From an uncultured Clostridia bacterium (GTDB taxonomy: Bacteria; Bacillota; Clostridia; Christensenellales; Borkfalkiaceae), in NCBI GenBank assembly GCA_964592605.1, contig CAZQFP010000001.1:6755-70754 (forward strand): 64,000 nt of DNA, written 5' to 3'. Positions within the stretch are counted from its first letter, which is position 1. Every line of letters starts with the position of its first letter. Both the position numbers and the translations under genes were made by a program. A model generated the notes under the pieces. The model made no database searches. It worked only from the letters and a program-made list of their open reading frames with translations, and was not told where the DNA came from. Below, piece by piece: positions 11,944 to 61,331 of this stretch.

Positions 11944-14900
11944 TTAATTGCGTTTTTTGAATTTTGCTACCATCGTTGCCGCAAACATTATGCCGACAGC
12001 GCCTAAAAGTACAAGGAAGCCGCCGTCAAAACCGCCGTCCGAGCCGATTGTTCCGCAACCTGAGCAATTACCGCCCTCTTCCCCTTCGTTAGGGTTGCCG
12101 CCCTGATTTTGCGATACCGTTACGTTTACTCTCAGTTTTACACCGTAACCTTCTACCTGAACGTATCTGTCAAGCGAGCTGAGCGCGCCGTCGGAGCCTG
12201 CACTCAACTTGATTTTGGACATATCTGCAAGCTCTTCAGAGAAGTCGTCGTATACGACTACCAGCTTAAGTCCGGACATATCGAACTTTTCACCCGACAC
12301 GTACGAAGTTTTGTGCGTGCTGTCTTCCGCAAGTTTAAGCGATTCAGCCTTTGTGGGGATACCGAACTTTGTTTTAATTGCACGAAGTTCTGTTTCGACA
12401 GCGGTGAGTTTTTCAATATTTTCCACACCGAGAAGCTCAAGCTGTTTAGAGTTGTAAACGCCACGGTTAATGTTGTCGTTTACCTGGTTTAAAAGTGCGT
12501 GCGCATCTTTAACTTCTTTGGCAAAAGCAGAAACCATTGCTTTGTTTTCGTCGTTTACGGTCAGGCTTGCCCAGCCCTTTACCGTTTCGGCAGATTCAAG
12601 CGCTTCGATTTTTTGCTTTAATTCGCTTGTAACTTCTTCAAGAATTTCTTCGCCCACTATTTTGTTAGCGAAGTACGCGTTATAAACAAAGTTGTTGTAA
12701 CCCGTTCCGTTGGAAGGATAGGTCATTGTAAGAGTTGCGGGGAATTTATTTGCCGCAATTAAATCGGTATTTACAATACCCGTATATTCGATAAAGCGGC
12801 TTTCAAAGTTGTAATAGAACATTGTGTTTATTCTTTGACCGGTTATCGAAGGGTATACCGAAGCAAGGTCTACGTATTCTTCCATAAGCACCGGAGCGGT
12901 CAACGAGCGGAACTCGTATTCCGTTATGCCGCTACCCGCAAACGCGTTTATGCCGACCGTCTTTAAGCTGTAGGGAAGAATTACCTTTGTTACCGGTGAA
13001 TTGCCCTGTGATTTAAGCAAGCCTGAGAACGCGTAGTCGCCTATTGCAACAGTGCCGTCCTTTACAGTGTACGTGCCCGTTGTCAGCGTGCTGGGGTAAA
13101 GCACAAGCTCGAATTCGTTTGACGTGATATAGCGGTAAAGCACGTTGTTTTCAACGAAGAATTTATCGTTTTCAGCTATTGAAATTCTGTTAAGTCTGGA
13201 AGTTGCAAATGCGCCTGCCCCGACGCTTTCAAGACTGGCGGGCAACGAAACGCTGTCTGCGCCGCCGCCGTAGAACGCAAGGTAGCCTATTGAAACCACT
13301 TTAGGCATTGAAACTGACGTGTATCTTGTAGACGAAGTCGTGCCGTCGTCAAGAATTACGCAGAACGCCAGGTCGCCGATATATTCAGCCGAAGCAAGGT
13401 TAAGCGATGAAAGTGCGGAACAGCCCCTGAACGCTTCGTCGCCGATAACTACAAGGTTTTCCATTCCTGTAACCTGCGCAAGACTTGAGCAGGCTTTGAA
13501 TGCGGCCGCTCCCGCTACTACAACGTTTTTAAGGTCAATATTTACAAGGCTACCGCATGCTTCAAACGCGCTTGCACCTATCGTAAGCGTATTGTCGCCG
13601 AGTGTTACGCTTGTAAGCGAGCTGTGATAAGTGCCTATGCCGTCGTTACCGGGATAGAACGTGTAGCTACCAGTTGTTGACGAGCCTGCACCGAACGTTA
13701 CCGTTGTAAGCGAATAGCATCCGAAGAATGTGTAAGCGCCGAGATAGGTGAGCGAAGGCAACTCTACGCTTTGCAGATTAAAACAGCCGTAGAACACTTC
13801 ACTGCCCATCATTGCGCCGCCGGTAATGCCGCTTTCGCCGACAACCACTGCGGGACCTGCGGGGAATTCAACGGTTAAAAGCGAAGTGCAGTTTTTAAAC
13901 GCGCTGTCCGAAATAACTTCGAGCAAAGAATTTTCAGCAAACTCAATCGTAGCGAGCGAACCGCATCCTTCAAACGCGCTTGCGCCTATAACTTTGACGC
14001 TTGCGGGAATTGTAATTGAAGTGATATTTTCCGCGCCGTACAGCAAGAAGTTAGGAATTTCCGCAATGGCGGGCAACTGCAACGTCTGCAAGTTGAGATA
14101 TGCGAACGCGCCTTCGCCGATTTTTGTTACGCTTGCGGGGATCGTAATAGTTGTTACGCCGCTTGCAAGAGTGCTGTCAGAGAACGCATAGGGAGCAATT
14201 TCCGTAGTATCGGACTTAATTGCCCAGCCCGCGCCTATCGTCTTGGGAGCAAGCACGAGCGTTGTGCCCGAATAGAGAGCGCCGTCCTGCGTGGTTATAC
14301 CCGTTATCGTTACGTTTGAATTTTTGAATACGCCGTCGCCGAAAGCAACGTCTTCGTTGGGCAATGCCACAGTTGTAAGCGACGGGCAGTTTGCAAACGC
14401 CATATCGCCGAGTGATACGACCTTATCTCCGGTAAACGTAACGCTGTTTAAGTTTGCACAATTATTGAACGCAAACGCGCCGATATAGAATTCGAGATTA
14501 GGTTGCGACGCTCCGAACGCTACGGTTTTAAGATTTATACAGTTTTCAAACGCATAATTGCCGACGCGAGCGCAGTTGATTTCAACGTTTTGCAACGAAG
14601 TACAGCCGTAGAACATATAGTCGCTTATTGACGTATATTTGCCGGTCGTTACCGTTGTAAGCGAAGTACAGCCGTAGAACACGCCGCACTTTTCGGAGTG
14701 AATTCCCGTAACGTAGCCGTTTTCGTCCACGTCGCAGAAGTATTCGTTGAAGGGCATTGAACCCGAGCCGGAATTGTGCAGACCGCTGATGTCGGCTTCT
14801 TCCAACTTGGAGCAGTTTGTAAACGCGCCCATGTTCATCGTGCCGATATTGTCCATTGCACGCACTTCTTCCAAAGCGGTACAATCTTTAAACACGAACT

Positions 14901-17900
14901 TATCGAGCGTTATCGTCTTTACGTTGCTGAAATCAACGAGTTTTAACGACGTACAGCCTTCGAACGCGTTCTGAAGTATTGAAGACAATTTCGAGTTTGC
15001 TATGGGCTGTTTGTCTTTAGATATAAAGTAAACTTCTTCCAGAGCGGTGCAGTTTTTAAACGCGCGCTCCTGAATTTGCGTTACCGTTTCGGGAATGACA
15101 ATCGAAGTAATGTTTTTGTTGTTCTTAAACGCATCCGGACCTATCGTAGTGATATTTTCGTTTACGGGAAGAACCACTTCGCCGCCAGTGCCGTTGTATT
15201 CTGTAAGCGTTGAGTTCGTAATTGTAAACGGATCCAAAACTCTTAGCGTTACGCTTGCGGAATAGCTTGATTCGGTGCCGTTTTCGTTGAGAACGACAGC
15301 CTTAATGAACGCGTTACCCTTTTCGTCGTATGTGGTAACTTTGCCGTTCTGGTCAACCGAAGCCACGTTTTCGTTGTCGCTCGTCCACTTCAGTTTAAGG
15401 TTATCAGCAGGGTAATACCACGGGTTGCAAATTACGTTTAAATTGAAGTTCTGTCCCGCGCTTACCGAAACAGTACCCACGGCAGGTTGCAAACCTTTAT
15501 CGCTGTTTTTTATTACTTCAAAGGAAATGGAATTGAGCCTTACGGTATTTTTAGCTTCCACTACCTTTACGTTAAGGAACTTTCTCGATTCGTTTTTACC
15601 GATAACGGTAATTGTGGTTTCGCCAACGCTCTTCGCGAAAATCTGTCCGTTTTTAACCAACGCAACGTCGGGATTGCCCGTTTCCCAACCGAAGTTGGAA
15701 AGATCGGCTTCACCAGTGCCGGTAAGTTTTACGGTGAACGCTTCGTTAAGTCCGAGCGTCAACTGCTTTTCGCCTTTTTTGTCAATCGTAATTTTGCTGT
15801 TTTCAGCGATGTCGAAGTTTTCGGGCAGATTTGCCGAATTTGTACTCGACATATTGAGAGTATAAACGGTGTAATTGAGTGCGTAATCCGTAACCTGTAC
15901 GTACAGACTGTTTTTGTACTTATCGCTCTTTAAAATATCGGTTATATCTATTGTAACAGTGGTTATATCGTTCTTCTTTGCATTGTATACGGGCGTTACA
16001 TAATTCGTTGCAAGCTGAATTACAACACTTCCGTCCGCGTTTGCGTTTTCGTCTTCCGAAGCGTAGCAAAGCATTACCGCCTGCGGGTAATGGTTATCGA
16101 AAACATCGAGTTCGAGCGTAGCCGTCTGAACTGCGTTTGCGCCTGTGCCAGAAGTTCTGTACTTAATGCGCGATTCTATGAGCACGGGGGCTTCGTAGTC
16201 CACGTAGAAAGTCATGTTGAACGTGTTGCCCTTTGCGTACTCAGCCTTCTCTTCCGCAGTCATCTTATCTTCCGCTTCCTTGTCTTCTATAGTGCGGTAG
16301 AAGTGGAATTCAAGCGCGTACTTGCCGTTGGCTTTAAGACCGAGCTGGTCGGGAGTATATTCGAGTTTTACGTTTGCAGGCACAGTTGAGCCGCCGCCGG
16401 AGAACGCCTTTGCTACCCTGTAAAGTTCGCGGTATTCGTTGCCGTTTTCGTCGTAAATAACTTCGCCCGTGTCTGCGTTGGTAAGCCTGTAAGTTACGAG
16501 TTCGGCGTTTCTTAAAAGTCCCGTATAGAGAGCTTTTAAGCCCGTAGTCGTCATATAGTTGCCAAGGTTTTCTTCGTCGGTGTAGTCGTTATAACGCGAT
16601 ATTGCCATGTGTTCGGCGTCGAAATAAATCTGCTGTTCGTTTTCGTCCTGAACGTAAATGTACGAACCCATGGGAATGGTGTAACGGTCGTTATAGTATG
16701 TTGCATACGGGTGCGTTGCCCAAACCTGGGGCTGGGGACGCGTAAGGTTCGTATACTGGCTGTCCTTGTCGTACTCGGCCTTTTTGTAGCAGTCCATATC
16801 GAGCATGGGAGCCTTACCCCAGTCGCCGTAGAAGCCCATGAACGGACAGGTAAGGTCGCACTGACCGTCGGTTTCGGCAATGAGCTTTAAGAAGCCTTCA
16901 ACGTACATACCGTTTACAAAGCTGTTTTCAAGGTAGTCCTTTTCCGTCTTGGTAAGCGTAAGCGTTACTGAAATTTCAGCCGTATCACCCTTTGAAACGG
17001 TGAAAGTTTGCCCGTCCGCAAGCGCGGTACCGTTTACTTTCCACGTACCCTTGTCTGAGAAGAGATGAGCCTTTTCCGCAACAGCCAAGCCGTTTAAAGC
17101 GGTCGTTTCGGTGAAGAATATTGCCTGCGTTTTGAACGTAAGACTGTCCGCGCCGAAGTTCTTGACTTTGAAAGTCATATTGTATACGCCGTTGCCCTTG
17201 TTTGAGCCTTTTTTAAGCATATCTGCGCCGAGTTCTATTTTGGGACGCTTGTCGTCGTCGTTATCGGTGTAAAGATATGCGTTTGTCGTAAACGCGTTAT
17301 CAAGCGTTGCAAGACCGGCGCCCTGTTTTCTGGGAGAATAAGGCAAGCCTTCCCTGTCGTAAACCGTAGTTGCCGTACTCATTAAAATCTGGTTGGTAAG
17401 CTCGGTGTACTTATCGGGAGTGCAAACCAAATTTTCGTTTGTTTTGATATAGCTTGTGAGAAGCGCCGCAAAGCCCGCCATGTTGGGCGAAGCCATCGAA
17501 GTACCGCTCTGCTCGTCGTAGCCGCCGGCAACGGTGGAAGTTATTTCACCGCCGTGCGCGGTTAAATCGGGTTTAAGTTTTAAATCGGGAGTTGCGCCCC
17601 AGCTGGAGTAATCGTTCATGAACGGACCTTCCTGGAAGGACTCGTTCAGCGTTATATAGCCCACTCTGCCGCCGTTGGTGGCTTTTCTTAAAAGTTCGCC
17701 CGCGTCAAGCGAAACCGAAGCCGACGGAATGGGATTTTCCATGTCGCCAAGGTTCATTCTTATTGTACCGGCAACGTTGTTGTAAACGATTATCGCCGCC
17801 GCACCGTTACGCATTGCAACGCCGACTTTGTCTTCAAACGTGTTGCTACCGCGCTGAACGACTGCAATTACGGGCTCTTCACCTTTAAATTCTTTGGAAA

Positions 17901-19473
17901 CGGCAATATAGTCGCCGTTTTCGCCGTAGCCCGAAATCATAACGTACTTATAGGTTTTTGTCTGTTCGCCCTTCAACATTTGCTCGTTGAAGTCGTACAT
18001 CTTCATATTTACGTTACTTGAATCTTCGTAGTAAATGGGTTGAGCTTTGCCGTCCGCCTGCACCGTCATATAGCGCGAAAGCTGACCGTTGATACTTGCA
18101 ACGGAAAGCGCGCCCGTAAACGTTGAAGGCGAACCTACCGTACCCGAGTCGGGACTGTCCGCACGGTTTGTACCGTATGCACTGCCGTAGCCCGAGCTGA
18201 ACTCGTTACTTGCCGCGCAAACAAGGTTTATGCCGCCGTCCCTTATTTTGCCGTAAACTTCGTTCATCCACTTGCCTTCGGTATCGCCGTCTATATCTAT
18301 GGACGAGAAACCGCCCGAAGTTCCGAGCGACATATTTATTATGTCTACGTCAAGTTTAATGCAATCTTCAAGTGCGGCAAGTATATCTTCAGTTACGGCG
18401 CCGCCCAAATCTTTGCTTTCGAAGTCGTCCGTGAACACTTTACATATTACGAGCTGAGATTCGGGAGCAACGCCGCGGAAAGTCAACGGATTGCCGTCTT
18501 TGTCCTTTGCCACTTCGCCTTCTTTATTCGTATAGCTGTCATCCTTGCCGCCTATGATGCCCGCAACGTGCGTGCCGTGCTGGGAGTACGAAGGATAAAC
18601 GTCCGCGTCATGATCGGCGTAGTCGTAGGCAAAGGGAACTTTTGCGCTTACGTATACGTCGTCCACGGTAGAATTTGTGGCTTCGACGGAAAAGTCGTTG
18701 GAATTCATTAAACTACGCACTCTTTCTTTGGTGAGCGAAACTTCTGCGGGGTCGTGGCTGAAAGCGCTGTGCGTGTAATCGAGACCGGTATCGAGTATGG
18801 CAACCACCATTCCGCGGCCGTCTATGCCCTGTTCAACGTACTTTGAAGAATTGTAAATACCTGTTGCGTATACGTTACTGGGGTTTATGGTTTCAGACTG
18901 CTGTTCGGATTCAACAGCCTGCGGGTATGCGTATGTTGAAGAATAAACCACCGATTTAACGGAGTTTATGCTCTTGATTTTTGAAACATTAGCGGCGTCA
19001 GTAGTTATAGCCACCGCGTTGGTTACGGTGTTGTAGCTGTCAATGTATTTATAGCCTATTCCCTTGCTTGTAAGCTGGGTAAAGAAGTCGCGCTGACTGC
19101 TTTCTATTGATTTCAGCGCCTTTGCGCCTGCCGAGCTTGCAACGTATTCGGTAACAGGCATACCTGCGGGAGCGCTTTCGAGTATGCTGTCCGCGTCAAG
19201 TTCGACTATGACGGTGTGCTTTCCGCTTACGTTGCTTGTGGAAGACGCCGAGCCGTCGCTTTTTAAAACGCTTGAATTGAGATTGCTTAAAGCTACGCCC
19301 TGCAAGTCGATTTGACCTGTTACGTCTTCAAACGATACGGTATCGTAATCGCGCGACGAGCCGCTTGCGCTTTTATTGTCGTCGGCAAAAGCAAGCACGT
19401 TGCCCGCTACAAACGTTGAAACCATTAACGCGCTTAAACATATACACGACGCGTTCTTTAACTTTTTAGTCAT
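11944..19473 (-). CDS. giant cell-surface subtilisin-family (S8) serine protease with PA-domain insert, Big_2-like Ig domains, long BspA-type leucine-rich-repeat region and C-terminal TM anchor (2509 aa)
   Basis: Signal peptide (..VLAFA/DD). Catalytic triad motifs are VAILDTGLDYTH (Asp, about nt 18795), SQHGTHVAGIIGG (His) and SGTSMASPNMAG (Ser, about nt 17496). PA-like insert PVIAVVQRGSNTFEDKVGVAMRNGAAAIIVYNN. Big_2-like segments (VALVKNGQIFAKSVGETTITVIG; NVASVDQNGKVT). About 25-30 repeats of the I-x-IP-x-SVT-x-IG-x-x-AF-x-x-C-x-x-L type. C-terminus is GGNCSGCG, then a TM helix, then KKRN. GGAG RBS. Confidence 0.85.
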   Translation of the reverse strand: MTKKLKNASCICLSALMVSTFVAGNVLAFADDNKSASGSSRDYDTVSFEDVTGQIDLQGVALSNLNSSVLKSDGSASSTSNVSGKHTVIVELDADSILESAPAGMPVTEYVASSAGAKALKSIESSQRDFFTQLTSKGIGYKYIDSYNTVTNAVAITTDAANVSKIKSINSVKSVVYSSTYAYPQAVESEQQSETINPSNVYATGIYNSSKYVEQGIDGRGMVVAILDTGLDYTHSAFSHDPAEVSLTKERVRSLMNSNDFSVEATNSTVDDVYVSAKVPFAYDYADHDADVYPSYSQHGTHVAGIIGGKDDSYTNKEGEVAKDKDGNPLTFRGVAPESQLVICKVFTDDFESKDLGGAVTEDILAALEDCIKLDVDIINMSLGTSGGFSSIDIDGDTEGKWMNEVYGKIRDGGINLVCAASNEFSSGYGSAYGTNRADSPDSGTVGSPSTFTGALSVASINGQLSRYMTVQADGKAQPIYYEDSSNVNMKMYDFNEQMLKGEQTKTYKYVMISGYGENGDYIAVSKEFKGEEPVIAVVQRGSNTFEDKVGVAMRNGAAAIIVYNNVAGTIRMNLGDMENPIPSASVSLDAGELLRKATNGGRVGYITLNESFQEGPFMNDYSSWGATPDLKLKPDLTAHGGEITSTVAGGYDEQSGTSMASPNMAGFAALLTSYIKTNENLVCTPDKYTELTNQILMSTATTVYDREGLPYSPRKQGAGLATLDNAFTTNAYLYTDNDDDKRPKIELGADMLKKGSNKGNGVYNMTFKVKNFGADSLTFKTQAIFFTETTALNGLAVAEKAHLFSDKGTWKVNGTALADGQTFTVSKGDTAEISVTLTLTKTEKDYLENSFVNGMYVEGFLKLIAETDGQCDLTCPFMGFYGDWGKAPMLDMDCYKKAEYDKDSQYTNLTRPQPQVWATHPYATYYNDRYTIPMGSYIYVQDENEQQIYFDAEHMAISRYNDYTDEENLGNYMTTTGLKALYTGLLRNAELVTYRLTNADTGEVIYDENGNEYRELYRVAKAFSGGGSTVPANVKLEYTPDQLGLKANGKYALEFHFYRTIEDKEAEDKMTAEEKAEYAKGNTFNMTFYVDYEAPVLIESRIKYRTSGTGANAVQTATLELDVFDNHYPQAVMLCYASEDENANADGSVVIQLATNYVTPVYNAKKNDITTVTIDITDILKSDKYKNSLYVQVTDYALNYTVYTLNMSSTNSANLPENFDIAENSKITIDKKGEKQLTLGLNEAFTVKLTGTGEADLSNFGWETGNPDVALVKNGQIFAKSVGETTITVIGKNESRKFLNVKVVEAKNTVRLNSISFEVIKNSDKGLQPAVGTVSVSAGQNFNLNVICNPWYYPADNLKLKWTSDNENVASVDQNGKVTTYDEKGNAFIKAVVLNENGTESSYSASVTLRVLDPFTITNSTLTEYNGTGGEVVLPVNENITTIGPDAFKNNKNITSIVIPETVTQIQERAFKNCTALEEVYFISKDKQPIANSKLSSILQNAFEGCTSLKLVDFSNVKTITLDKFVFKDCTALEEVRAMDNIGTMNMGAFTNCSKLEEADISGLHNSGSGSMPFNEYFCDVDENGYVTGIHSEKCGVFYGCTSLTTVTTGKYTSISDYMFYGCTSLQNVEINCARVGNYAFENCINLKTVAFGASQPNLEFYIGAFAFNNCANLNSVTFTGDKVVSLGDMAFANCPSLTTVALPNEDVAFGDGVFKNSNVTITGITTQDGALYSGTTLVLAPKTIGAGWAIKSDTTEIAPYAFSDSTLASGVTTITIPASVTKIGEGAFAYLNLQTLQLPAIAEIPNFLLYGAENITSITIPASVKVIGASAFEGCGSLATIEFAENSLLEVISDSAFKNCTSLLTVEFPAGPAVVVGESGITGGAMMGSEVFYGCFNLQSVELPSLTYLGAYTFFGCYSLTTVTFGAGSSTTGSYTFYPGNDGIGTYHSSLTSVTLGDNTLTIGASAFEACGSLVNIDLKNVVVAGAAAFKACSSLAQVTGMENLVVIGDEAFRGCSALSSLNLASAEYIGDLAFCVILDDGTTSSTRYTSVSMPKVVSIGYLAFYGGGADSVSLPASLESVGAGAFATSRLNRISIAENDKFFVENNVLYRYITSNEFELVLYPSTLTTGTYTVKDGTVAIGDYAFSGLLKSQGNSPVTKVILPYSLKTVGINAFAGSGITEYEFRSLTAPVLMEEYVDLASVYPSITGQRINTMFYYNFESRFIEYTGIVNTDLIAANKFPATLTMTYPSNGTGYNNFVYNAYFANKIVGEEILEEVTSELKQKIEALESAETVKGWASLTVNDENKAMVSAFAKEVKDAHALLNQVNDNINRGVYNSKQLELLGVENIEKLTAVETELRAIKTKFGIPTKAESLKLAEDSTHKTSYVSGEKFDMSGLKLVVVYDDFSEELADMSKIKLSAGSDGALSSLDRYVQVEGYGVKLRVNVTVSQNQGGNPNEGEEGGNCSGCGTIGSDGGFDGGFLVLLGAVGIMFAATMVAKFKKRN

Positions 19474-19572: not shown

Positions 19573-22500
19573 TTAGTTTTTAGTTATTGTCATAGGATAT
19601 TCGCTGGTTCCATAGCTCATCTCAGCCGTGTAGGTATTACCCTGCGCGTCGGTAAGCGTGAACACGAATACGAGTTTATCGACGTCTGGTTCGGGAATGG
19701 TCGTATAGCTGTAAACGGTGCCGTCGGAGCAGATAATCTGTCCCACGCCGTTGAAGTCGTAAGTTACGCCTTCATTTTCCGCGTCGTTGGAATGCACTTT
19801 ATAGAACTTGTCGGGTTTTATAAGCTCGAACCAGTTGCCGTTTAATGCGTACGCGCCGTCCTGCTTACCACTCAACGGATTGAGAACGTATTTGACAACG
19901 CCCTGCAATCTGAGCTCCACAACGCCGAATGCGTTTTCCGAATAGTCGTACTCGGTCATTTTGCCTTCAAGCCCTATAACGGTTGCCTTACCACTGCCTA
20001 CGGTGCTTACTATAAAGCCGTCCAAAACAATCTTCTGACCGTCTTCCGCCACGTACTCGCCGGCAAATTTATCAAGCGCACCCGCCTTTATGCAACGGGT
20101 GAAGCCGTAGCGCGTACTGGGTGCTTGGCAGAGAGCTATTTCCTGCTGTTTACCCGTTACTATGCTGAGTTTAATAAGGTACAGCGTTTTGCCGCCGTAT
20201 TTAAACGACATAAGGTTTTCGGACTCATAAACGAACGTTACGTTTTCACCGCAGTAAGTGCCGCTTGCCGTGCTGTCGGAACCGACTTCGCCTACGGTTA
20301 TACTGCCGCCCAAGCCGCCGATTGTCCAGCTACCCGTAAACACGTTGACTATTTTAAGGCTTGCGTCGGGTGAGCCGCTCTTTTTAAGAACGTAACCGTT
20401 TGCGTTTTTAACTATCGTTTCGCCGCTTGTAAGCGTTACGGTATTGCCGTCTGCGCTTACAGTATAGCCGCACTCGGTGGTGTTTGCACCGTTTGTTACG
20501 GTAGCCTTACCGCCGCCCGAAAGCAAGCCGTAGCCGTTAAACGCGTAAACGTTGCCGCCGTTATCGGAAAGTTTAACGTTGCGCCATGTATCGTAGTGGT
20601 GCATTACGAAGTTATCTCCGCCGCCCGTTACCGTTACAGTATCGTTTGCGGGGCTGTATACTATGCTGTAAGTAGTACCGTTGTATTCGAACGAACCGTT
20701 GAAGCCAGTGCCATCAACGGTATAGGGTATATATTCGCCGGAAATTATCACCGTACCTTCCACGGCAATTCCCGTAGCCTGGCTTGCGCTGAGTGAATAT
20801 GCGCCGAAGCCGTCGAACGTTACGATACCGAACTTCGTGCTAAGCCATTCGCCCCTGAAATTATCGTACAGACAGAACGCCGCATTCGACAACGCACCGC
20901 CGTCTTTAATTGAATAAATTTGACCCGAAAGCGTAAGTTTTTGCAAATCGAAACCGAGCTGAGCATACATATCGCTGTCAAGGAAAATGCGCACGTAGCT
21001 GTTTTCGCCCTGCTTAACGTTTTCGTACTTCATTTCCATAGGTTGCGTAAGATAGGTGCTTGAAAGCGTTACCGTTCCGTAGCCGTCCTTGCCTATGCCG
21101 TTGAATTTAAGAGTTATCGATTCTTCGTAGAACATCTTCCACTCGCCCACGTTGCTGTTTTCGCGGTAGAAGGTCTTTTGAACGGAATTTGCAGTTACTT
21201 GCAGATAGCCGTTTTCGTCAAACTGTGCACTGCCGCAAACCGCATTACTGCCGTTATATAGCGTAACTACGCCGCCTGCAACGGTATAAGTGCCGTTCGA
21301 AGTCGAAACTTCTTTTACGGAATTTGTGCCGCCGACTTTTTCGTATTCAAAACTTGTGTATTTCCAGGTGTTTTTGCCGTCGAATTCGTAAAGTTCGTGC
21401 GCGGAAGCCGCGGTTTCCCAAACGCCTTCGAATGCGTCGTATGCCGTATACGTCGTACCGTTTACCGTAACGGTATCGGTGCCGAACGTAGCCGCAATAC
21501 CGTTTATTAAAAGGTTGGTGCCGTTGAACATATAGGTTACCGAATTGCCGTTATACTCTGCAGTACCGTCGGAGTTGAGAACCAAATTTTGATTACCCGA
21601 ATAGTACTTGCCGTAAGTTAAACCTTCAATCTTCTTTACGCCGTTGAGCGTTGCCGTCTGCGTATAGCTCTGGTTGTCGTACATTTTTATAAGGTTGCCG
21701 TCAACCGTTGCCTTGCCCGCATACAAAGCTCCGCCCGTAACAAACAGGGGACATCCGTAAAGTGTGATATACGTGCCGTCGTAAGCGTAATACGAAAGGT
21801 TCTGTGCCGCGCCGCTTGCGTACAACAACGAGCCGTCCGCTTTAAGTTCGATATAAGTTCCGCTACCTTGAACGGAAGTTTTAACGTAGTACACGCCTGC
21901 AATCTGGGAATAATCCGCAAACCCGACGTAGAGTTCTTCGCCCGTAGGCACGTACGCCGCGGGCGCCTTATAGTAATTTTCGCCGTCCTTCAAATAATAG
22001 CCGTACGATAATTCACCGTTCTTTGCTATATATTCTTCAACGCCGTTCGAAGCATACCAAAGCGACAGCGGCTGATATTTATTGAGTGTAAATGAAGCGG
22101 CATTGCCGTTCGCGCCGTTCATTTCAAGCACGTTCAAAGTTACGCTCTTTACTGCGCTTATACCCTGCTTAGCCACGGGATATGTGCCGCCGAACGTCCA
22201 ATCGGCTTCACTGAAGCCGAGAGTATTTTTAAGCGCTTCCGCACTTGTAAAATCAACACCCGAATTTTTTGCAAAGTTATTTAAAGCAAGGCCGGCAACC
22301 GATTCAACTCTGCCGCTGTCAGCGGGCCGTATTCCGCCGACTATATCGCCCCTGTGCGCATAGCTTGCACCTGCCGTTGCGTTTGCGTTAACCGTTGCAA
22401 CCGAGAAACAGTCCTTAACTATGCTGTCGCTATATACGTAACCGGCAACGCCGCCGGCATACGAACTTAAGCTGTCCGCAGTGCTGCCCGCAACAAAACT

Positions 22501-24000
22501 CGTACGGTTGTACGCGCTTACTGAAGAAGCCGAGCAATAACTCTTTTGAAGAGATGCGAAACTGTCAAGGAAACCGACGAGTCCGCCAGCATAAATAGCG
22601 CCGTTAATACTGCCGGAAGCCGCACTGTTAATTACCATTGCGGGAGCAGTTTCCGACATACCGCTCATTGCGCCGACAATTCCGCCCGCCGCAAACAGTC
22701 TGCCCGATCTGCCGTTGATGGCAACGTTAGACATACAGCCGCTAATCTGGGAAACGTGCTTATACTGTTCGTCAGCGTAATACGCCTGGTCAAAACCGAC
22801 AAGTCCGCCCGCATAGCCGCCTTCGCTCGAGTCGGCGTCCACGGTTATTTTTCCGCTTGCGGTGCAACCGCTGATTTCGGTACCCATTGCGTAGCCGATA
22901 AGTCCGCCCGCATAGAAACCGCTACGGTATTTTGCGGCGTCAACCACTATTTCGTAGTTCTCAAGATTTAAGTCCTTGATTACGCAGGGTGTCAACGAAA
23001 TTTCGCCGGTTTTCGTACGCTCGAGATTAGGACTTGTTCTGCCGAAAAGTCCGATGTATTTAACGAAAACGTCCGTAAAGCCGGACTGTTCTATTAAAGT
23101 GTCTTCCAACACGAAGTTGCTTATTTTGTGCCCGTTGCCAAGGAAAGTTCCGCTGAAATATGCAGTTTCCGTAGTTCCGTCGCCGATAATGTAAAGCTGT
23201 TCGCCCTTCATATCGATGTCGTTTTCAAGGCTGTAATACGCGCCGTTGTAAAGACCGCCATAGTAACTGTCGTTCACGATATCGGCAAGCAGGTACAAAT
23301 CCATTGCTTCCCTTATACGGTAGGGATTCTCGTAAGAGCCGTCGCCGTCTTCTCTTTGTCCGAAGTTTTTCTTAAGTTCAAGACCGGTAACGGTTATGTT
23401 CGTGTCGCGTATGGGCGAGATAGAATAAACGGTTTTGCCGCCTATTTCTTCCCCGATAAGCACCATATCGTTTGCAAGTACGGTGTAGGGATTTTCCTTA
23501 TCAACGTCGTAGTAGACGCTTATATCGATAGTGAACTTGATTTCGGTGCCCGATTCAACGTTAAGATTGTCAAGCTCGTTGCCGTCCAAATCCAAATAAT
23601 TAAGGCGGTTTTCAACCAAAGTATTGTCCGCGCCGGTGAATATTTTCAGGAAGGAAACTTTGTAAGAGCCGGACGTTGAAACGCCGCCAACCGTTACGTT
23701 GCTGTCTTCTTTCATTACGAACGAATAGGTGCCGTCAGCGTTCTTTGTAAGCGTTTGACCGTTGACTTTAACCTGCGCATCGTCCTTGCCCTGCAACTGG
23801 TCGCTGAATTCCGCGGTAAACACAACGGTGTAGCCGTCCTTTACTTCCGCACCGCTTTCAATTCCGTTAAAGTCGAAAGTTACTCCTTCGATATTTTCGT
23901 AAGTGAGTTTATAATACGCAGGGGTACCACAGCCGACAAGCGCGCAAATCGCGCAGGCTATGCTTATCATTCCCAATAAAACAGTTAAAAACTTTTTCAT
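19573..24000 (-). CDS. giant surface lipoprotein with GLUG-motif repeats (1475 aa)
   Basis: Lipobox ALVGC-GT. Repeated GGL(I/V)G motifs (YAGGLIGYAMG, GYAGGLVGF, AAGGIVGA, YAGGLVGF, YAGGVAGY) are typical of GLUG-motif domains. The remainder is Gly/Tyr/Thr-rich and looks beta-rich. I prefer the ATG at 24000 (GGAAGG RBS 7 nt upstream) over the TTG at 24003. Confidence 0.7.
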   Translation of the reverse strand: MKKFLTVLLGMISIACAICALVGCGTPAYYKLTYENIEGVTFDFNGIESGAEVKDGYTVVFTAEFSDQLQGKDDAQVKVNGQTLTKNADGTYSFVMKEDSNVTVGGVSTSGSYKVSFLKIFTGADNTLVENRLNYLDLDGNELDNLNVESGTEIKFTIDISVYYDVDKENPYTVLANDMVLIGEEIGGKTVYSISPIRDTNITVTGLELKKNFGQREDGDGSYENPYRIREAMDLYLLADIVNDSYYGGLYNGAYYSLENDIDMKGEQLYIIGDGTTETAYFSGTFLGNGHKISNFVLEDTLIEQSGFTDVFVKYIGLFGRTSPNLERTKTGEISLTPCVIKDLNLENYEIVVDAAKYRSGFYAGGLIGYAMGTEISGCTASGKITVDADSSEGGYAGGLVGFDQAYYADEQYKHVSQISGCMSNVAINGRSGRLFAAGGIVGAMSGMSETAPAMVINSAASGSINGAIYAGGLVGFLDSFASLQKSYCSASSVSAYNRTSFVAGSTADSLSSYAGGVAGYVYSDSIVKDCFSVATVNANATAGASYAHRGDIVGGIRPADSGRVESVAGLALNNFAKNSGVDFTSAEALKNTLGFSEADWTFGGTYPVAKQGISAVKSVTLNVLEMNGANGNAASFTLNKYQPLSLWYASNGVEEYIAKNGELSYGYYLKDGENYYKAPAAYVPTGEELYVGFADYSQIAGVYYVKTSVQGSGTYIELKADGSLLYASGAAQNLSYYAYDGTYITLYGCPLFVTGGALYAGKATVDGNLIKMYDNQSYTQTATLNGVKKIEGLTYGKYYSGNQNLVLNSDGTAEYNGNSVTYMFNGTNLLINGIAATFGTDTVTVNGTTYTAYDAFEGVWETAASAHELYEFDGKNTWKYTSFEYEKVGGTNSVKEVSTSNGTYTVAGGVVTLYNGSNAVCGSAQFDENGYLQVTANSVQKTFYRENSNVGEWKMFYEESITLKFNGIGKDGYGTVTLSSTYLTQPMEMKYENVKQGENSYVRIFLDSDMYAQLGFDLQKLTLSGQIYSIKDGGALSNAAFCLYDNFRGEWLSTKFGIVTFDGFGAYSLSASQATGIAVEGTVIISGEYIPYTVDGTGFNGSFEYNGTTYSIVYSPANDTVTVTGGGDNFVMHHYDTWRNVKLSDNGGNVYAFNGYGLLSGGGKATVTNGANTTECGYTVSADGNTVTLTSGETIVKNANGYVLKKSGSPDASLKIVNVFTGSWTIGGLGGSITVGEVGSDSTASGTYCGENVTFVYESENLMSFKYGGKTLYLIKLSIVTGKQQEIALCQAPSTRYGFTRCIKAGALDKFAGEYVAEDGQKIVLDGFIVSTVGSGKATVIGLEGKMTEYDYSENAFGVVELRLQGVVKYVLNPLSGKQDGAYALNGNWFELIKPDKFYKVHSNDAENEGVTYDFNGVGQIICSDGTVYSYTTIPEPDVDKLVFVFTLTDAQGNTYTAEMSYGTSEYPMTITKN

Positions 24001-24090
24001 CAAAATACCTTCCTGTGAACGCGTTTACAGGCTCCTTTTTTCAAGGTTCAGCCGCAAACAAGCTATATGTCCCATAATAATAGCCTTAAC

Positions 24091-24119: not shown

Positions 24120-24425
24120 CTGATTTCCAATCGTTTAATAATTATAAGTATGCGCATTTTTATAGCGGTAATAAGCACAGATTATACCCCAATTAACGTA
24201 TATCCTTCGTTTTTGTCGTTTTCCGCAATAAAACAAGCAATTTTTTGTCAAAAACGGATAAAAACGCATCAGTTTTAAAACTTTTTATAAGAAAATCTTT
24301 TTAAAATAATATGCCGTCCGCAAAATAATCGTAATATTTTTGTATGCATAATTTTTGTATAATTTTATATTTTAACCATTGCAACAGGCTAAAAAACTGT
24401 TTTTTTGTCCTTTACTAAGAAAAGC

Positions 24426-24452
24426 GGCGCAAGCGTTTAAAGCGCTTGCGCC
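24426..24452. terminator. second (outer) hairpin closing array A; bidirectional terminator-like
   Basis: GGCGCAAGCG / CGCTTGCGCC 10-bp stem, followed by T-rich runs on both strands. It occupies the same position as hairpin 32091-32117 of array B but has an unrelated sequence. Confidence 0.6.
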
Positions 24453-24467
24453 TGATTTTAATTTTAA

Positions 24468-24739
24468 GCCCCCGAAAGGGGGCGACCTGCCCGCTTAGAA
24501 ATAAGCTAATGCGGGTAAAAGCGCGGCTATTCCACGCCGTTACCGCAAGGACGGTCCAGTTCGCCATGCATCAAAGCAAGGCAGGACAAAGTTCCCTTCA
24601 ACTCATAACAATTCTGTTACGTATTCCTTGAAATACGCAATACCGGTAAACCTGCTTTTTTCTTGTCATACTGAGCCTTGGCGAAGTATCTCGTGAGATT
24701 CTTCACTACGTTCAGAATGACATTCACAGGTGAGTTCAT
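24468..24739 (-). ncRNA. conserved structured RNA-like segment ('scaffold') terminating cassette array A; class not recognised
   Basis: Reverse complement of 31861-32072 with roughly 85% identity by eye outside indels. It shares the same series of hairpins, with compensatory or loop-restricted differences. It ends (minus strand) in GCCCCC-UUUC-GGGGGC plus a U/A-rich tract (24468-24483). It carries a 73-nt insertion in the first hairpin loop. Confidence 0.55.
24664..24722. repeat. MITE-like imperfect palindrome (TGTCATxCTGAG...GAAG-ATCTC / GAGATTCTTC...CAGAATGACA) inserted in scaffold A
   Basis: Left arm TGTCATACTGAGCCTTGGCGAAGTATCTC and right arm GAGATTCTTCACTACGTTCAGAATGACA are inverted copies. 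Absent from the otherwise collinear scaffold B. Same family as 42170-42248 and the half-copies listed below. Confidence 0.7.
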
Positions 24740-24911
24740 GCGCGGGCCGCACCGAATACCAACGGAAATCATCGCCCTGGCTAGTAGCACCAGACTGAGA
24801 AACTGCAAGTGTAAGGTTTGTATGTTCGTGGTAGCCGGAGCGCAGCGGTGCGTAAAAATAAAAAAACTTTGCCCTTTTGCACATTTTAACATATTAAGCC
24901 GTATGTTACAA
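24740..24911 (-). repeat. cassette unit A1 (promoter + leader box + invariant 18-mer + variable core + invariant 14-mer)
   Basis: Minus strand: TTGTAA (24911-24906), 17 nt, TAAAAT (24888-24883), AGGGCAAA box, T-run, GCACCGCTGCGCTCCGGC (24852-24834), 80-nt core (24833-24754), GGTGCGGCCCGCGC (24753-24740). Confidence 0.75.
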
Positions 24912-24926
24912 CTAAACCGAGTTGGA

Positions 24927-25096
24927 GCGCGGGCCGCACCGTGTACCAGCGGTCAGACCTACCATTGCCCATACCGCCATCGACGTAGAGAATGTAAGCA
25001 TTTCTCGTGTCGCCGTAGGCGCCGGAGCGCAGCGGTGCGAAAAATAAAACTTTTGCCCTATATGCGCATTTTAACATATTAAGTTGGTCGTTGCAA
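24927..25096 (-). repeat. cassette unit A2
   Basis: Minus strand: TTGCAA (25096-25091), 17 nt, TAAAAT (25073-25068), AGGGCAAA, T-run, 18-mer (25039-25021), 80-nt core (25020-24941), 14-mer (24940-24927). Confidence 0.75.
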
Positions 25097-25111: not shown

Positions 25112-25260
25112 GCGCGGGCCGCACCGATAGCCAATCAGTAACGTCGTGCCCGTAAAGATAGCCCGAAACACGGAAACTGAAACACTGCCGCGTGCCGCCA
25201 CGGTCGCCGGAGCGCAGCGGTGCGTAAAATAAAAAACTTTACCCTTCTACGAGTGTTTAA
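25112..25260 (-). repeat. cassette unit A3 (promoter-proximal unit, degenerate -10)
   Basis: Minus strand: TTAAAC instead of TAAAAT (25260-25255), AGGGTAAA, T-run, 18-mer (25224-25206), 80-nt core (25205-25126), 14-mer (25125-25112). Confidence 0.65.
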
Positions 25261-31514: not shown

Positions 31515-31682
31515 TTGCAAGTTTTTTATTGCACCGTTAAAATGCGCTTATAGGGCAAAAGTTTTTTATTTTCGCACCGCTGCGCTCCTGCTCAGACTAC
31601 GGTACAAGCGTTGGCTTTACTCTGTCAGATGCCGGTCTCAGTTACACTTTGGTAGTCGATTGGCTAGCGGTGCGGCCCGCGC
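31515..31682 (+). repeat. cassette unit B1
   Basis: TTGCAA (31515-31520), 17 nt, TAAAAT (31538-31543), AGGGCAAA, T-run, GCACCGCTGCGCTCCTGC (31574-31591, one G>T), 77-nt core (31592-31668), GGTGCGGCCCGCGC (31669-31682). The promoter spacer contains GTTTTTTATTGCACCG, a vestige of a further unit. Confidence 0.75.
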
Positions 31683-31692
31683 TTCAACTTAA

Positions 31693-31860
31693 TTGCTTTT
31701 TTATATCTCACATGCTAAAATGTGCGAAAGGGCAAACGTTTTTATTTTGCACCGCTGCGCTCCGGCTACTTTTACTATGCTGGCAATGCTTACAACCTTA
31801 CGGTAGGTGGTAGCCTTAACACTGACATCACTGCTTATTGGTTCTCGGTGCGGCCCGCGC
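31693..31860 (+). repeat. cassette unit B2
   Basis: TTGCTT (31693-31698), 17 nt, TAAAAT (31716-31721), AGGGCAAA, T-run, 18-mer (31749-31766), 80-nt core (31767-31846), 14-mer (31847-31860). Confidence 0.75.
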
Positions 31861-32072
31861 ATGAACTCACCTGCAAAAACAGGTTTACCCGTATTGCGTA
31901 TTTCAAGGAATACGTAACAGAAACGTTACGAGTTGAAGGGAACTTTGTCCTGCCTTGCAAAGTTATTGCATGGCGAACTTGACCGTCCTTGCGGTAACGG
32001 CGCAAAACAAGTTGCACTTTTATTCGCATTAGCTTTTACGTAAAGCGGGCAGGTCGCCCCCCTTACGGGGGC
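31861..32072 (+). ncRNA. conserved structured RNA-like segment ('scaffold') terminating cassette array B; class not recognised
   Basis: Hairpins: ACCTG-CAAAAA-CAGGT; CGTATT-TCAAGG-AATACG; GTAAC-AGAAAC-GTTAC; GCCTTGC-loop-GCATGGC; GCAA-AACAAG-TTGC; GCTTT-TACGT-AAAGC. Possible long-range pairing TCCTGCC/GGCAGG. Terminator GCCCCC(C)-TTAC-GGGGGC plus TTAAATTT (32056-32080). Confidence 0.55.
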
Positions 32073-32090
32073 TTAAATTTAAAAATAAAA

Positions 32091-32117
32091 GCGGCGTGTG
32101 CTTAAAGCTCACGCCGC
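32091..32117. terminator. second (outer) hairpin closing array B; also the terminator of the convergent gene 32135..33004
   Basis: GCGGCGTG / CACGCCGC stem. TTTGTT follows on the plus strand and TTTTATTTTT on the minus strand. It lies 18 nt from the stop of the minus-strand membrane-protein gene. Confidence 0.7.
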
Positions 32118-32134
32118 TTTGTTCATTTAAAAAA

Positions 32135-45207: not shown

Positions 45208-45882
45208 ATGCCCGATTACTTTTCACACATTATCGTAGCCGAAAAAATTTACGAACGGCTTGAACCTGACTTAAAAGAAAAAATAACTAACCAGACCCTG
45301 TACTTTTTGGGCTCGCAAGGACCCGACATATTTTTCACGTACAGCGCAAAACCCACCAAAACCAATTTAGGGCGGGTTATTCACGGTCGTAGCGCGGTTG
45401 AAGTTTTTACCGCTCTTACAAGCGCAAACCCTTCGTATGCGGCGGGCTTTGCCGCACACTACGCGCTAGACAGTATGCTTCATCCCGCAGTATATGCGTA
45501 CGAAAGCGGTAAGCGCTCCCCGTTTGCGCACCAGCGCTTTGAAAAAGATTTGGGGCTGTATATAAGCAAGTTTTACCGCACGCGCCGCACGATTTTACAG
45601 CGCGAAAAGATACTTGAATGCACCTTTGCCATTTACGACAGCGCAAAACTTTTGGACGACGAAATTACGGTTACCGGCGTTGAACGTTGCTTAAAGCGCC
45701 ACTTCGAATACACCCGCTACCTTTACCGCACTAAAAAGCAAAGCTATAAGTGCCGTTTCGATTTCTCGTCGCTTGCCGGCGCGGTTGAAGACGCCGTAAC
45801 TTTGGGCGCGGAGTGCGTTAAATGCGTGCTTACTGGCGATATAAACGCTGAAACTTTCGAAAGAGAATTTCTGCAACATTAA
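45208..45882 (+). CDS. zinc-dependent phospholipase C-like family protein
   Basis: N-terminal FSHIIVAE, GSQGPDIFF, HG and FAAHYALDSMLHP match the His/Asp-rich pattern I associate with that family. Starts 2 nt after ogg. Confidence 0.5.
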   Translation: MPDYFSHIIVAEKIYERLEPDLKEKITNQTLYFLGSQGPDIFFTYSAKPTKTNLGRVIHGRSAVEVFTALTSANPSYAAGFAAHYALDSMLHPAVYAYESGKRSPFAHQRFEKDLGLYISKFYRTRRTILQREKILECTFAIYDSAKLLDDEITVTGVERCLKRHFEYTRYLYRTKKQSYKCRFDFSSLAGAVEDAVTLGAECVKCVLTGDINAETFEREFLQH

Positions 45883-45889
45883 CCATAAC

Positions 45890-45917
45890 TGTCATTTTGA
45901 GTGAAACGAAAAATCCC
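45890..45917. repeat. MITE-like repeat, left-arm half copy
   Basis: TGTCATTTTGAGTGAAACGAAAAATCCC, followed by ACAATACAAATG. Starts 8 nt after the stop codon at 45882. Confidence 0.6.
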
Positions 45918-45974
45918 ACAATACAAATGCAAAGCCTTACAAAAAATCCCGTTATAGCAAGAAAAAACAATTAA

Positions 45975-46020
45975 AGACCGCGGAAAGTCAAACATATTCC
46001 GCGGTCTATTCTATTATTTT
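45975..46020. terminator. hairpin terminator shared by convergent genes
   Basis: AGACCGCGGAA / TTCCGCGGTCT 11-bp stem (45975-45985 / 45997-46007), followed by ATTCTATTATTTT. It overlaps the stop of the minus-strand M50 protease gene. Confidence 0.65.
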
Positions 46021-60877: not shown

Positions 60878-61019
60878 TGTTAAAACTCCGTTTATAAACA
60901 CGAATGTGAATACATTTTGTGCATACAGTCTATACGGTAAAAATTATAACCCAATCAAATTTTTTAAGCAATAAAAAACGGCTTGATTTTAAAAAAAACA
61001 ATAAAATAAGGAAATAATT

Positions 61020-61244
61020 TTGGAAAAATTCGCACTTTTGAATTTACTTAAAGCATTGCAGAGTTTGTCGCCGCAAAATCAAAGTCAGACTGAAAGCGGC
61101 GAAACGCCGCCACAGCCGACAGAAAAACCGCCAGTACCCCCTGCGGAAACCGTTAGCGTTCGGCAATCCCCCTACCCCAACGTTATGGCTTCGGTAATCG
61201 AACGGCACGAAGCAATTTCAAACCGCTTAAAAAACAAACGTTAA
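61020..61244 (+). CDS. small hypothetical protein (74 aa, Pro/Gln-rich), TTG start
   Basis: AAGGAA lies 6 nt upstream of the TTG. Low-complexity centre (PPQPTEKPPVPPAE). Coding status uncertain. Confidence 0.35.
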   Translation: MEKFALLNLLKALQSLSPQNQSQTESGETPPQPTEKPPVPPAETVSVRQSPYPNVMASVIERHEAISNRLKNKR

Positions 61245-61248
61245 CCTT

Positions 61249-61286
61249 TGTCATTCTGAACGGACGAAGCGCAATAAAAAATCTCA
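61249..61286. repeat. MITE-like repeat, left-arm half copy
   Basis: TGTCATTCTGAACGGACGAAGCGCAATAAAAAATCTCA. Starts 5 nt after the stop at 61244. Confidence 0.55.
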
Positions 61287-61308
61287 CTCCCCCAACTTAC
61301 ATAAAAAA

Positions 61309-61331
61309 GCCCGCAGGCGTAGTCTGCGGGC
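61309..61331 (-). terminator. rho-independent terminator of pfk
   Basis: GCCCGCAG / CTGCGGGC stem. On the minus strand it is followed by TTTTTTAT. Confidence 0.75.

Follow-up and report, generated by a model that had tools for sequence, protein, structure and literature searches.

Two arrays of short cassettes lie within the 64,000-nucleotide (nt) stretch analysed here (hereafter the window), which comes from contig CAZQFP010000001.1 of an uncultured Clostridia bacterium. Each array ends in a copy of the same segment, referred to below as the terminal RNA: copy B at 31861-32117 on the plus strand and copy A at 24424-24739 on the minus strand. The segment folds as an RNA, is linked to units that resemble template repeats (TRs), and recurs in relatives, in one of which transfer from a TR to a variable region (VR) is adenine-specific, and in another of which it stands in a canonical cassette with a reverse transcriptase (RT), Avd and a TR. 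We consider it very probable that the segment belongs to the template RNA of a diversity-generating retroelement (DGR), as its structured 3′ domain, and is equivalent to the "spacer" (Sp) RNA of Bordetella phage BPP-1.

Array A comprises three minus-strand units of about 186 nt, running from 25258 to 24740, and array B two units of about 176 nt on the plus strand, from 31520 to 31860. Each unit is built of a sigma-70-like promoter (TTGCAA or TTGTAA, 17 nt, TAAAAT), a leader (AGGGCAAAAGTTTT) and flanks around a core. The 18-nt 5′ flank (GCACCGCTGCGCTCCGGC) is exact in the five units except for one mismatch in B1, and the 14-nt 3′ flank (GGTGCGGCCCGCGC) is invariant in all five; both recur in a related locus, L001. 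The cores framed by these flanks (CTGCGCTCCGGC .. GGTGCGGCCCGCGC) are 84 nt long (81 nt in B1) and share near-zero identity between units. The units and their upstream elements are as follows.

25112-25223, minus strand: unit A1, with leader AGGGTAAAGT at 25236-25245
24927-25038, minus strand: unit A2, with a promoter-like site at 25068-25096 and its leader at 25050-25059
24740-24851, minus strand: unit A3, the last of array A, with a promoter-like site at 24883-24911 and leader AGGGCAAAGT at 24866-24875
31515-31543, plus strand: promoter-like site of unit B1 (TTGCAA, 17 nt, TAAAAT), with a like arrangement before A2 and A3
31552-31563, plus strand: leader of unit B1, AGGGCAAAAGTT, the 5′ strand of a long-range helix (P0)
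31574-31682, plus strand: unit B1, a template-repeat-like cassette (GCACCGCTGCGCTCC .. GGTGCGGCCCGCGC) with the open frame APLRS..VRPA
31693-31721, plus strand: weaker promoter-like site of unit B2 (TTGCTT, 17 nt, TAAAAT), read by eye and below the scan threshold
31728-31742, plus strand: leader of unit B2, AAAGGGCAAACGTTT, again the 5′ strand of P0
31749-31860, plus strand: unit B2, the last cassette of array B

All five cores are open in one frame (APLRSG-x28-VRPA, with a conserved Gly and Trp inside) and carry stops in the others, and start codons over the units lie in different frames or are absent, B1 having an in-frame stop and no start. The cores are thus under protein-level constraint, yet they are not genes. 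A profile of the units, run against 1.84 billion representative proteins, gave 43 matches, many of which are spurious small open reading frames (ORFs) over similar arrays in other assemblies, some of these holding Asn-rich units (e.g., WLRSGNNNNTNN..NNWLSVRPALH). The other matches are large surface proteins, aligned at the C-terminal end of Pfam DUF6273, a C-type-lectin-like domain and known DGR target with the VR at its C-terminus (PMC10743442, PMC11792537). Given this match to a DGR target, the units look like TRs: what they encode, in frame though untranslated, is part of a known target fold, namely the C-terminal ~40 residues of DUF6273, as is expected of a DGR template. A Pfam search with the 40-aa unit translations themselves returned no match.

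The two copies of the terminal RNA can be aligned end to end, except for one block private to copy A, and they were the only copies found by nhmmer over the window. A first-pass annotation had described the ~210-nt segment as a structured RNA with six hairpins (H1-H6) followed by a terminator and a second hairpin, and we found all eight hairpins at those sites in both copies. Its helix list was incomplete, in that the long-range helices P1, P0, P5 and P6 were overlooked, as was the identity of the RNA. For H1, the stem ACCTG/CAGGT is indeed present in both copies, while the 73-nt loop reported for copy A proved to be a 65-nt palindromic insertion resembling a miniature inverted-repeat transposable element (MITE). 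The elements of the terminal RNA are listed below, on the plus strand (copy B) unless stated otherwise.

31864-31868: 5′ strand of P1, AACTC, in the tail of the last unit, paired with GAGTT at 31930-31934 in the minimum-energy fold
31869-31884 (copy A, 24731-24727 with 24654-24650, minus strand): H1, ACCTG/CAGGT, directly after the template
31885-31895: conserved single strand TTACCCGTATT (TTCCCGnATT in other lineages)
31896-31915: H2, (G)CGTATT-TCAAGG-AATACG(T), 7 bp with loop TCAAGG, identical in copy A
31916-31927: H3 (AACA/(C)GTT), GTAAC/GTTAC in copy B and GTAACA/TGTTAT in copy A
31930-31937: primer strand GAGTTGAA, the 3′ strand of P1, in which A31937 is the proposed priming adenosine
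31938-31939: GG linker between the P1 and P0 strands
31940-31951: 3′ strand of P0, GAACTTTGTCCT, the partner of the leader upstream of a unit
31952-31974: H4, GCCTTGC/GCATGGC with an internal T-T mismatch, following P0 directly; the stem is the same in copy A and the loop differs
31975-31980: A-rich joiner GAACTT (GAAACAA or AAAACAT in other lineages)
31981-32055: 3′ domain, a three-way junction in which P5 encloses P6, a conserved ACGG, H5 and H6
31981-31988 with 32047-32055: P5, the long-range helix that closes the three-way junction
31990-31997 with 32020-32028: P6, a long-range helix inside P5
31999-32017: H5, a variable hairpin at the same place in both copies with unrelated sequence
32032-32046: H6, GCTTT/AAAGC in copy B and GCTTA/TAAGC in copy A
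32056-32072 (copy A, 24468-24483, minus strand): terminator-like hairpin 1, GCCCCCC-TTA-CGGGGGC, then a T-rich run
about 32091-32120 (copy A, 24426-24452, minus strand, with a different sequence): terminator-like hairpin 2, GCGGCGTG..CACGCCGC TTT
24484-24739, minus strand: copy A of the terminal RNA (nhmmer E = 1.6e-27), with primer strand GAGTTGAA at 24604-24597
24662-24726, minus strand: palindromic MITE-like insertion of 65 nt in the H1 loop of copy A, GTCATTCTGAAC..GTGAAGAATC..CTCAGTATGAC

The folding energy of the terminal RNA lies well below that of shuffled sequences (z = -5.2 for copy B and -5.9 for copy A); the reverse strand folds comparably (z = -5.0), so that energy by itself decides nothing. 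Differences between copies A and B prove little either, as the two are too similar, and the proof rests on ten further homologues. Together with the window copies, these form a main alignment of 12 instances, with MITE-like insertions cut from the loops and the sequences aligned by hand block by block. A tool-made alignment matches it from H2 onward, and since MAFFT displaced the H1 columns of the padded alignment, H1 was scored separately; it is found in every lineage, with a different sequence each time. Of 462 cells (40 pairs in seven helices), 96.1% pair, compared to a mean of 79.8% in shuffles (0/500 as high), and 24 of the 40 pairs are changed on both sides (13.6 in shuffles, again 0/500 as high). 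The covariation score is 0.467 compared to 0.182, and sliding the partners by 1-3 columns as a control left 31-47% of cells paired. H2 has six of its seven pairs changed on both sides with 100% of cells paired, H3 four of four, and P5 and P6 six of eight each.

Because the main alignment was fitted by hand, RNAalifold was also run on a plain MAFFT alignment made without reference to the structure. From P5 it recovered the inner half, along with P6, H6 and the base of H5, and 11 of 23 pairs showed compensation. It also drew a local hairpin that has since been reread as P0. That hairpin (GGGA/TCCT, after GAAGGG) has no pairs changed on both sides and was rejected, its 3′ strand being better explained as the P0 partner of the leader. 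The helices contain 42 G-U cells and 6 A-C cells, which places the fold in the sense transcript rather than in duplex DNA or the antisense strand. This sense-strand RNA fold is kept across about nine lineages, and the covariation in the ten homologues and two window copies bears out the first-pass call of a structured RNA. The class had not been recognised from the letters, and Rfam 15 likewise holds no matching family: a window-wide search at the gathering score matched none, and a search with copies A and B at E <= 10 gave only weak terminator-like noise over the two hairpins.

The homologues were traced via the spurious small ORFs over arrays in other assemblies, followed by retrieval of those loci. 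The retrieved loci yielded 11 more instances of the terminal RNA, of which 10 were aligned, and each lies directly 3′ of a DUF6273-type unit. The loci are of several kinds.

L001, L023 and L025: window-type arrays
L024: Asn-rich units, two in tandem
L027: two arrays, in a region syntenic with the window at 51-62 kb
L031 and L032: three A-rich units
L035: three arrays in succession, with one terminal RNA apiece
L038: canonical DGR cassette with one TR

Two of these loci tie the terminal RNA to DGR activity and to the DGR enzymes. In L031, the internal unit u2 differs from the VR of an adjacent 1084-aa gene by 8 mismatches over about 118 nt, with 8/8 at adenines of the unit, which is the classical TR-to-VR signature. 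L038 encodes an RVT_1 reverse transcriptase and bAvd, together with a promoter (TTGCTT-17 nt-TATAAT), a leader (GGGGCAAAAGTTTTG) and an Asn-rich DUF6273-type TR, followed by H1, TTTTCCCGTATTC, H2, ACGAGTTGAAGGGGCTTTTGTCCTGCC, H4, P5 (ACTCAACC/GGTTGAGT), H6 and a run of eight T. The order of promoter, leader, TR and terminal RNA thus agrees with the window motif by motif. The two differ in that L038 has one TR beside RT and Avd, whereas the window has five TRs in two arrays, with the enzyme genes not found. L024 encodes an Avd homologue immediately upstream of its two tandem units, the first of which (300-370) is shortened to about 20 codons between WLRSG and VRPA, compared to 28. RT and Avd were not found within 6-10 kb of the arrays in L027, L031, L032 and L035; in L031, L032 and L035, a target gene adjoins the arrays.

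Other searches for relatives gave little. Scans of genome and metagenome contig collections for the unit-flank pattern returned chance matches only, in G+C-rich genomes, and two pattern scans of viral contigs found nothing. No match was obtained by BLAST of array B with the terminal RNA against phages and plasmids, by tblastn against phages with an Asn-rich unit and with a DUF6273 protein, or by a protein-database search with chimeric six-frame peptides of the terminal RNA. Arrays of this type break assemblies, which probably explains both their rarity in public contigs and the misses by the pattern scans. We did note that the short-read Logan contigs L020-L022, which carry the window's 416-aa protein and come from the same species, end inside B1, 298 nt upstream of that gene. 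Public protein sets hold dozens of spurious small ORFs from non-coding arrays (P0044 from JGI, P0002-P0042), one of which is annotated as "K+-transporting ATPase c subunit".

Two long-range helices join the terminal RNA to the template units. In P1, the tail right after the G+C-rich end of the unit pairs with the core of the RNA just 5′ of the invariant GAAGGG; the heptamer TGAAGGG is unchanged in all 12 aligned sequences and also occurs in L038. The P1 strands covary, being AACTC/GAGTT in the window, TTCACT/AGTGAA in L031 and TTCA-CTC/GAG-A-TGAA in L024 and L035, and in L027 the partners (TCACAAAG/CTTTGTGA) lie about 250 nt apart. Among internal units, the tail of B1 (TTCAACTT, 31683-31690, plus strand) is fully complementary to GAGTTGAA over 8 bp (-7.7 kcal/mol). 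In P0, the 12-13 nt that directly follow GAAGG on its 3′ side pair with the leader upstream of a unit. The P0 strands are AGGGCAAAGT/ACTTTGTCCT in the window and AGGGCGACGGTC/GACCGCCGTCCT in L024, and in L035 they are GGGGTTATCGCT/AGCGGTAGCCCC, GGGGCTGTCGTT/AACGATAGTCCC and GGGTCTGTCGCT/AGTGATAGTCCC for arrays 1, 2 and 3, respectively.

Leaders of every lineage score best with their own core, and the three L035 arrays each match their own terminal RNA. Cognate P0 duplexes average -20.0 kcal/mol compared to -11.8 kcal/mol for non-cognate ones, and 94.2% of positions are paired, where all 14,833 derangements gave a mean of 75% and a maximum of 88.5%. Within the window, the leaders of B1 and B2 pair with 31940-31951 at -13.7 kcal/mol, and unit A3 reaches -17.0 kcal/mol. 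Both the leader-core and the tail-core complementarity are intact in every window unit. P1 and P0 are thus adjacent duplexes with only GG between them, the arrangement expected of a DGR template RNA.

The spacers between units also carry a condensed form of the primer strand (CAACT-CAGGTT-AGTTG-CAA in the window, TTCAC..GTGAAAGACGAAAC in L031). The window element, AGTTGCAA, resembles a condensed GAGTTGAA and pairs with the tail of the preceding unit (CAACT-CAGGTT-AGTTG), and it is overlapped by the -35-like TTGCAA/TTGTAA of the internal promoters (25096-25068, 24911-24883 and 31515-31543). The bases of AGTTGCAA may double as promoter and RNA element.

The RNA of phage BPP-1 provides the closest point of reference. 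There, cDNA is primed from the 2′-OH of Sp A56, at the end of a 7-bp duplex between Sp 50-56 and TR 118-124, and copying begins at TR G117 in a G+C-rich stretch (PMC6182149). Cryo-EM gives the order of the Sp elements as an Avd-binding stem-loop (Sp 3-33), the primer strand and two nucleotides (Sp 57-58), after which Sp 59-70 pairs over 11 bp with a segment upstream of the TR (the "cPRT Stop"), followed by a short stem-loop, unpaired adenosines, a "Thumb Ring" and a bRT-binding stem-loop at Sp 95-139 (bioRxiv 10.1101/2023.10.23.563531). According to the same source, a stem-loop directly 3′ of the TR and a duplex between upstream and downstream segments, 13 bp long on average, occur in 207 of 278 DGRs.

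Like the BPP-1 Sp, the window RNA lies directly 3′ of the TR, with its modules in the same order. By position, H1 would correspond structurally to the Avd-binding stem-loop. The primer strand Sp 50-56 has its counterpart in GAGTTGAA, both ending in adenosine, the two nucleotides in GG, the "cPRT Stop" strand in the P0 strand (duplex of 10-13 bp), the short stem-loop in H4 and the unpaired adenosines in the A-rich joiner. The bRT-binding stem-loop may be matched, again by position, by the 3′ domain (P5/P6/H5/H6); a separate counterpart of the single-stranded "Thumb Ring" was not identified in the window RNA. H1, H4 and the A-rich joiner are present in all lineages, and their correspondence to the BPP-1 elements is one of structure. 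The G+C-rich TR end lies about 75 nt from the proposed primer adenosine in the window and 73 nt in BPP-1, and in the window, too, copying would begin in a G+C-rich stretch of the TR.

There are also differences from BPP-1. Sequence similarity between the two RNAs is undetectable, and the window RNA has extra hairpins (H2 and H3) between the first stem-loop and the primer strand. Its 3′ domain is a three-way junction, in contrast to one long interrupted stem in BPP-1, and H1 has 5-8 bp with a loop of 5-12 nt that tolerates insertions of 65-90 nt, where the BPP-1 counterpart has an 11-bp stem and a UNCG tetraloop. Upstream, the pairing is to a dedicated leader that has a promoter of its own, and in BPP-1 to the end of the avd gene. 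Finally, the window RNA stops at terminators and serves an array of two or three templates with RT and Avd not nearby, whereas the BPP-1 RNA continues into the RT gene.

From these elements, the following mechanism may be proposed. Transcripts from any unit would extend to the two terminators past the terminal RNA. The core GAGTTGAA-GG-GAACTTTGTCCT would then bracket the template, with its left half paired to the unit tail (P1, template:primer) and its right half to the leader (P0, "stop"). RT and Avd, which we infer to be encoded elsewhere in the genome and to act in trans, would bind the RNA at H1 and at the 3′ domain (P5/P6/H5/H6). By positional analogy with BPP-1 Sp A56, the invariant GAA/GGG boundary at the end of P1 is the candidate priming site, so that cDNA would be primed from the 2′-OH of the last adenosine of GAA (A31937 in copy B and A24597 in copy A). 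Copying would start in the G+C-rich unit end and halt at P0, and the cDNA would take the place of the VR in a DUF6273 gene. The units have one leader in common and each a complementary tail, so that a single terminal RNA could serve any of the units in its array; the use of internal unit u2 in L031 and the better pairing of internal tails with the primer strand fit this arrangement. Internal units may be primed either locally, by the condensed primer strand in the spacers, or by the terminal core, and the window arrays may still be active. The RNA itself is a known kind of element, in a family absent from Rfam; what is new are the promoter-bearing template arrays that share one RNA, with several arrays at varying intergenic sites and the enzyme genes elsewhere.

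Several observations weigh against this explanation. The main alignment, besides being fitted by hand to the structure, contains near-duplicate rows (L031/L032 and L035a/c). The tail of the last unit, always ATGAACTC in window-type arrays, is a poorer partner for the primer strand than internal tails are. Adenines are scarce in the window units (12-20% A and 0-3 AAY codons, compared to 28-33% and 13-15 in canonical TRs), and the Trp codon of WLRSG has been lost from them by a deletion of 2 nt with respect to L025; either could point to decay. RT, Avd and a DUF6273-type VR were not found in the 64-kb window by Pfam (ORFs of at least 150 aa, all but a few), tblastn of the window with the RT/Avd pairs of L038 and of Faecalibacterium phage Roos gave noise only, and a six-frame motif scan of the window recovered the five units and no VR. 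Elsewhere, an adenine-poor unit of L035 (104-220) is 100% identical over about 116 nt to the VR (4099-4215) of an adjacent 2713-aa gene, and a unit of L027 (minus strand, about 14796) differs from a VR of L032 (minus strand, about 1907) by 1 mismatch in about 118 nt, with A in the unit and C in the VR, L027 and L032 coming from different samples. Adenine mutagenesis would be expected to alter more positions and does not predict such near-identical pairs, for which non-mutagenic transfer, VR-to-array transfer and selection are possible explanations.

That adenine-poor units are identical to, or one base off, coding VRs suggests that units can also take up or archive VR states. We therefore put forward, as a tentative idea that we regard as possible rather than probable, that the arrays are libraries of alternative templates with one shared priming/stop RNA and a distant RT, in which the cassette is chosen by pairing of its leader and tail with the core, and in which units also receive or archive VR states, with information passing in both directions between the coding VRs and the non-coding cassettes.

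The missing enzymes and targets, the adenine poverty and the lost Trp codon would be expected if the arrays and terminal RNAs were left over from a DGR whose RT, Avd and target had been lost, still foldable and no longer used. Leftover DGR parts lacking the core components are known in Treponema denticola (PMC4891356). Against such decay, the 18-nt and 14-nt flanks have been held exact in the five units, bar one mismatch, around 84-nt cores that are almost unrelated, each unit has kept the complementarity of leader and tail to the core, the promoters and double terminators are intact, and the same array type and flanks recur in other samples (L001, L023, L025). In addition, L031 and L035 have arrays without a nearby RT that adjoin a gene whose VR matches a unit, so that distance from the RT is normal for the lineage. 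We consider a relic unlikely.

It is very improbable that the segment acts at the DNA level, as a cruciform or single-stranded DNA structure, a site of recombination or target recognition, or a mobile-element end. In favour of this reading, DGR targets need a DNA hairpin/cruciform downstream of the VR (PMC3240598), arrays occupy different intergenic sites in relatives with MITE-like elements clustered around them, and by energy the reverse strand is about equally well folded. Against it, the excess of G-U over A-C cells is not expected of a DNA element with duplex symmetry, the promoters upstream and terminators downstream lie on one and the same strand, and P0 and P1, which span 100 to >250 nt, match the RNA architecture solved for BPP-1. 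Least credible is an independent regulatory RNA (a small RNA, or a cis-regulatory leader or trailer of the neighbouring genes) that adjoins the repeats by chance, since, for all its compact, structured and terminator-ended form and the lack of an Rfam match, 13 of 13 instances directly follow a DUF6273-type unit and pair with its tail and leader, next to neighbours that vary by locus (ArsP_2, a GLUG protein, MnmA, PFK, S9 and an Fe-dependent repressor).

Other readings were rejected outright. Small protein genes do not fit, with starts and frames inconsistent across copies, and the reading frame that crosses the terminal RNA is interrupted in copy A, where the insertion lies, and in L001 stops at HELTC*. 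Integron attC sites, shufflon segments and silent gene-conversion cassettes without a retroelement were dropped for want of inverted segment ends and in view of the adenine-specific TR/VR pair and the RT-Avd-linked copy, and tmRNA-like tagging or a trans-splicing 3′ exon is without Rfam support, with units that are too short.

Retron msr-msd RNA offers a further parallel to a DGR template RNA: it is a structured non-coding RNA that provides both template and primer for its own RT, with internal 2′-OH priming and flanks that pair. This parallel between retron and DGR RNAs has been drawn before (PMC6182149). Retron RNA differs in priming from a guanosine, in a template that is non-coding for protein, in an adjacent RT gene and in lacking Avd, and none of the Rfam 15 retron families matched. 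The Rfam motifs RT-1 to RT-19 are likewise structured RNAs beside bacterial RT genes, some of which may belong to DGRs (PMC5737381); none of them matched, whether in the window at the gathering score or in the two copies at E <= 10, where only terminator-like noise appeared. Surveys mention DGRs that have multiple TRs (PMC6642488), and we found no description in the literature of promoter-bearing template arrays that share one terminal RNA.

The canonical DGR of phage Roos (PP479939) has the order Avd-TR-spacer-RT with a DUF6273-type TR, in which it resembles the loci described here. Its spacer (L036 26960-27290) contains ATAGGTGAAAGACGACC about 45 nt after the TR, and GTGAAAGACGA in common with the u2 spacer of L031 (4690-4760). 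Otherwise, the spacer is dissimilar to the window RNA, and the TR is of another DUF6273 subtype (..GVVPGF). We did note that ATAGGTGAAAGACGACC shares ATAGGTG with the primer region of BPP-1 (AATAGGTGGTCA56), and a short primer motif may be common to distant DGRs.

Detailed knowledge of what DGRs require of their RNA comes from one phage only, BPP-1. The terminal RNA would represent a second family of DGR RNAs, unrelated in sequence and backed by covariation, with the same logic and modules of its own (H2, H3 and the three-way junction). Such a family could serve as a natural test of which DGR RNA features are universal, and as the basis for a covariance model able to find template RNAs distant from an RT. 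Surveys anchored on the RT gene would miss arrays that share one RNA and have their enzyme genes elsewhere, and the number of templates, hence the reachable protein diversity, may be underestimated in spore-forming Bacillota. The design of the arrays also suggests a route to multiplexed templates in engineered DGR mutagenesis. If units do archive VR states, the system would join DGR hypermutation to cassette-based antigenic variation in one hybrid.

Array A is followed closely on its downstream side by two genes for very large surface-type proteins, on the minus strand. Neither matches DUF6273 or contains anything resembling a unit, so that they do not stand out as targets.

11944-19473, minus strand: 2509-aa protein with S8 peptidase, PA, BspA-type LRR and Big_2 domains
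19573-24003, minus strand: 1476-aa protein with a GLUG motif

Relatives that share the gene order of the window hold arrays at intergenic sites that are empty in the window, namely between a 764-aa gene and PFK, close to ribosomal protein S9, and behind Peptidase_M50. The two array sites of the window itself were not seen occupied in those syntenic loci. As arrays lie at different sites in related genomes, their positions vary as if they were mobile or often gained and lost. The sites with coordinates are as follows.

L027 9960-11220 and about 13800-14900: arrays, empty at window 60901-61357
L033/L034 about 6000: array, empty at window 45882-46006

The MITE-like insertion in copy A folds on itself and is single-copy in the 64-kb window. 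Members of the same element family occur in the H1 loop, and in the H4 loop, of L001 and L023, and the H4 loop tolerates MITE-like insertions in L001, L023 and L027. The elements read GTCATTCTGAAC..GTGAAGAATC....CTCAGTrTGAC (GTCATTGCGAGAAGCGTAGCGACGAAGCAATCC in L035) and cluster in and around arrays, also between units, at the following sites.

L001 121-190, 407-492 and 585-668
L023 170-260 and 350-520
L027 10830-11090
L031 3600-3740, 4060-4200 and 5170-5290
L035 2460-2500 and 2860-3040

The strings "HSERSEES" and "QCD", which are seen in many of the spurious ORFs, are translated MITE-like elements.

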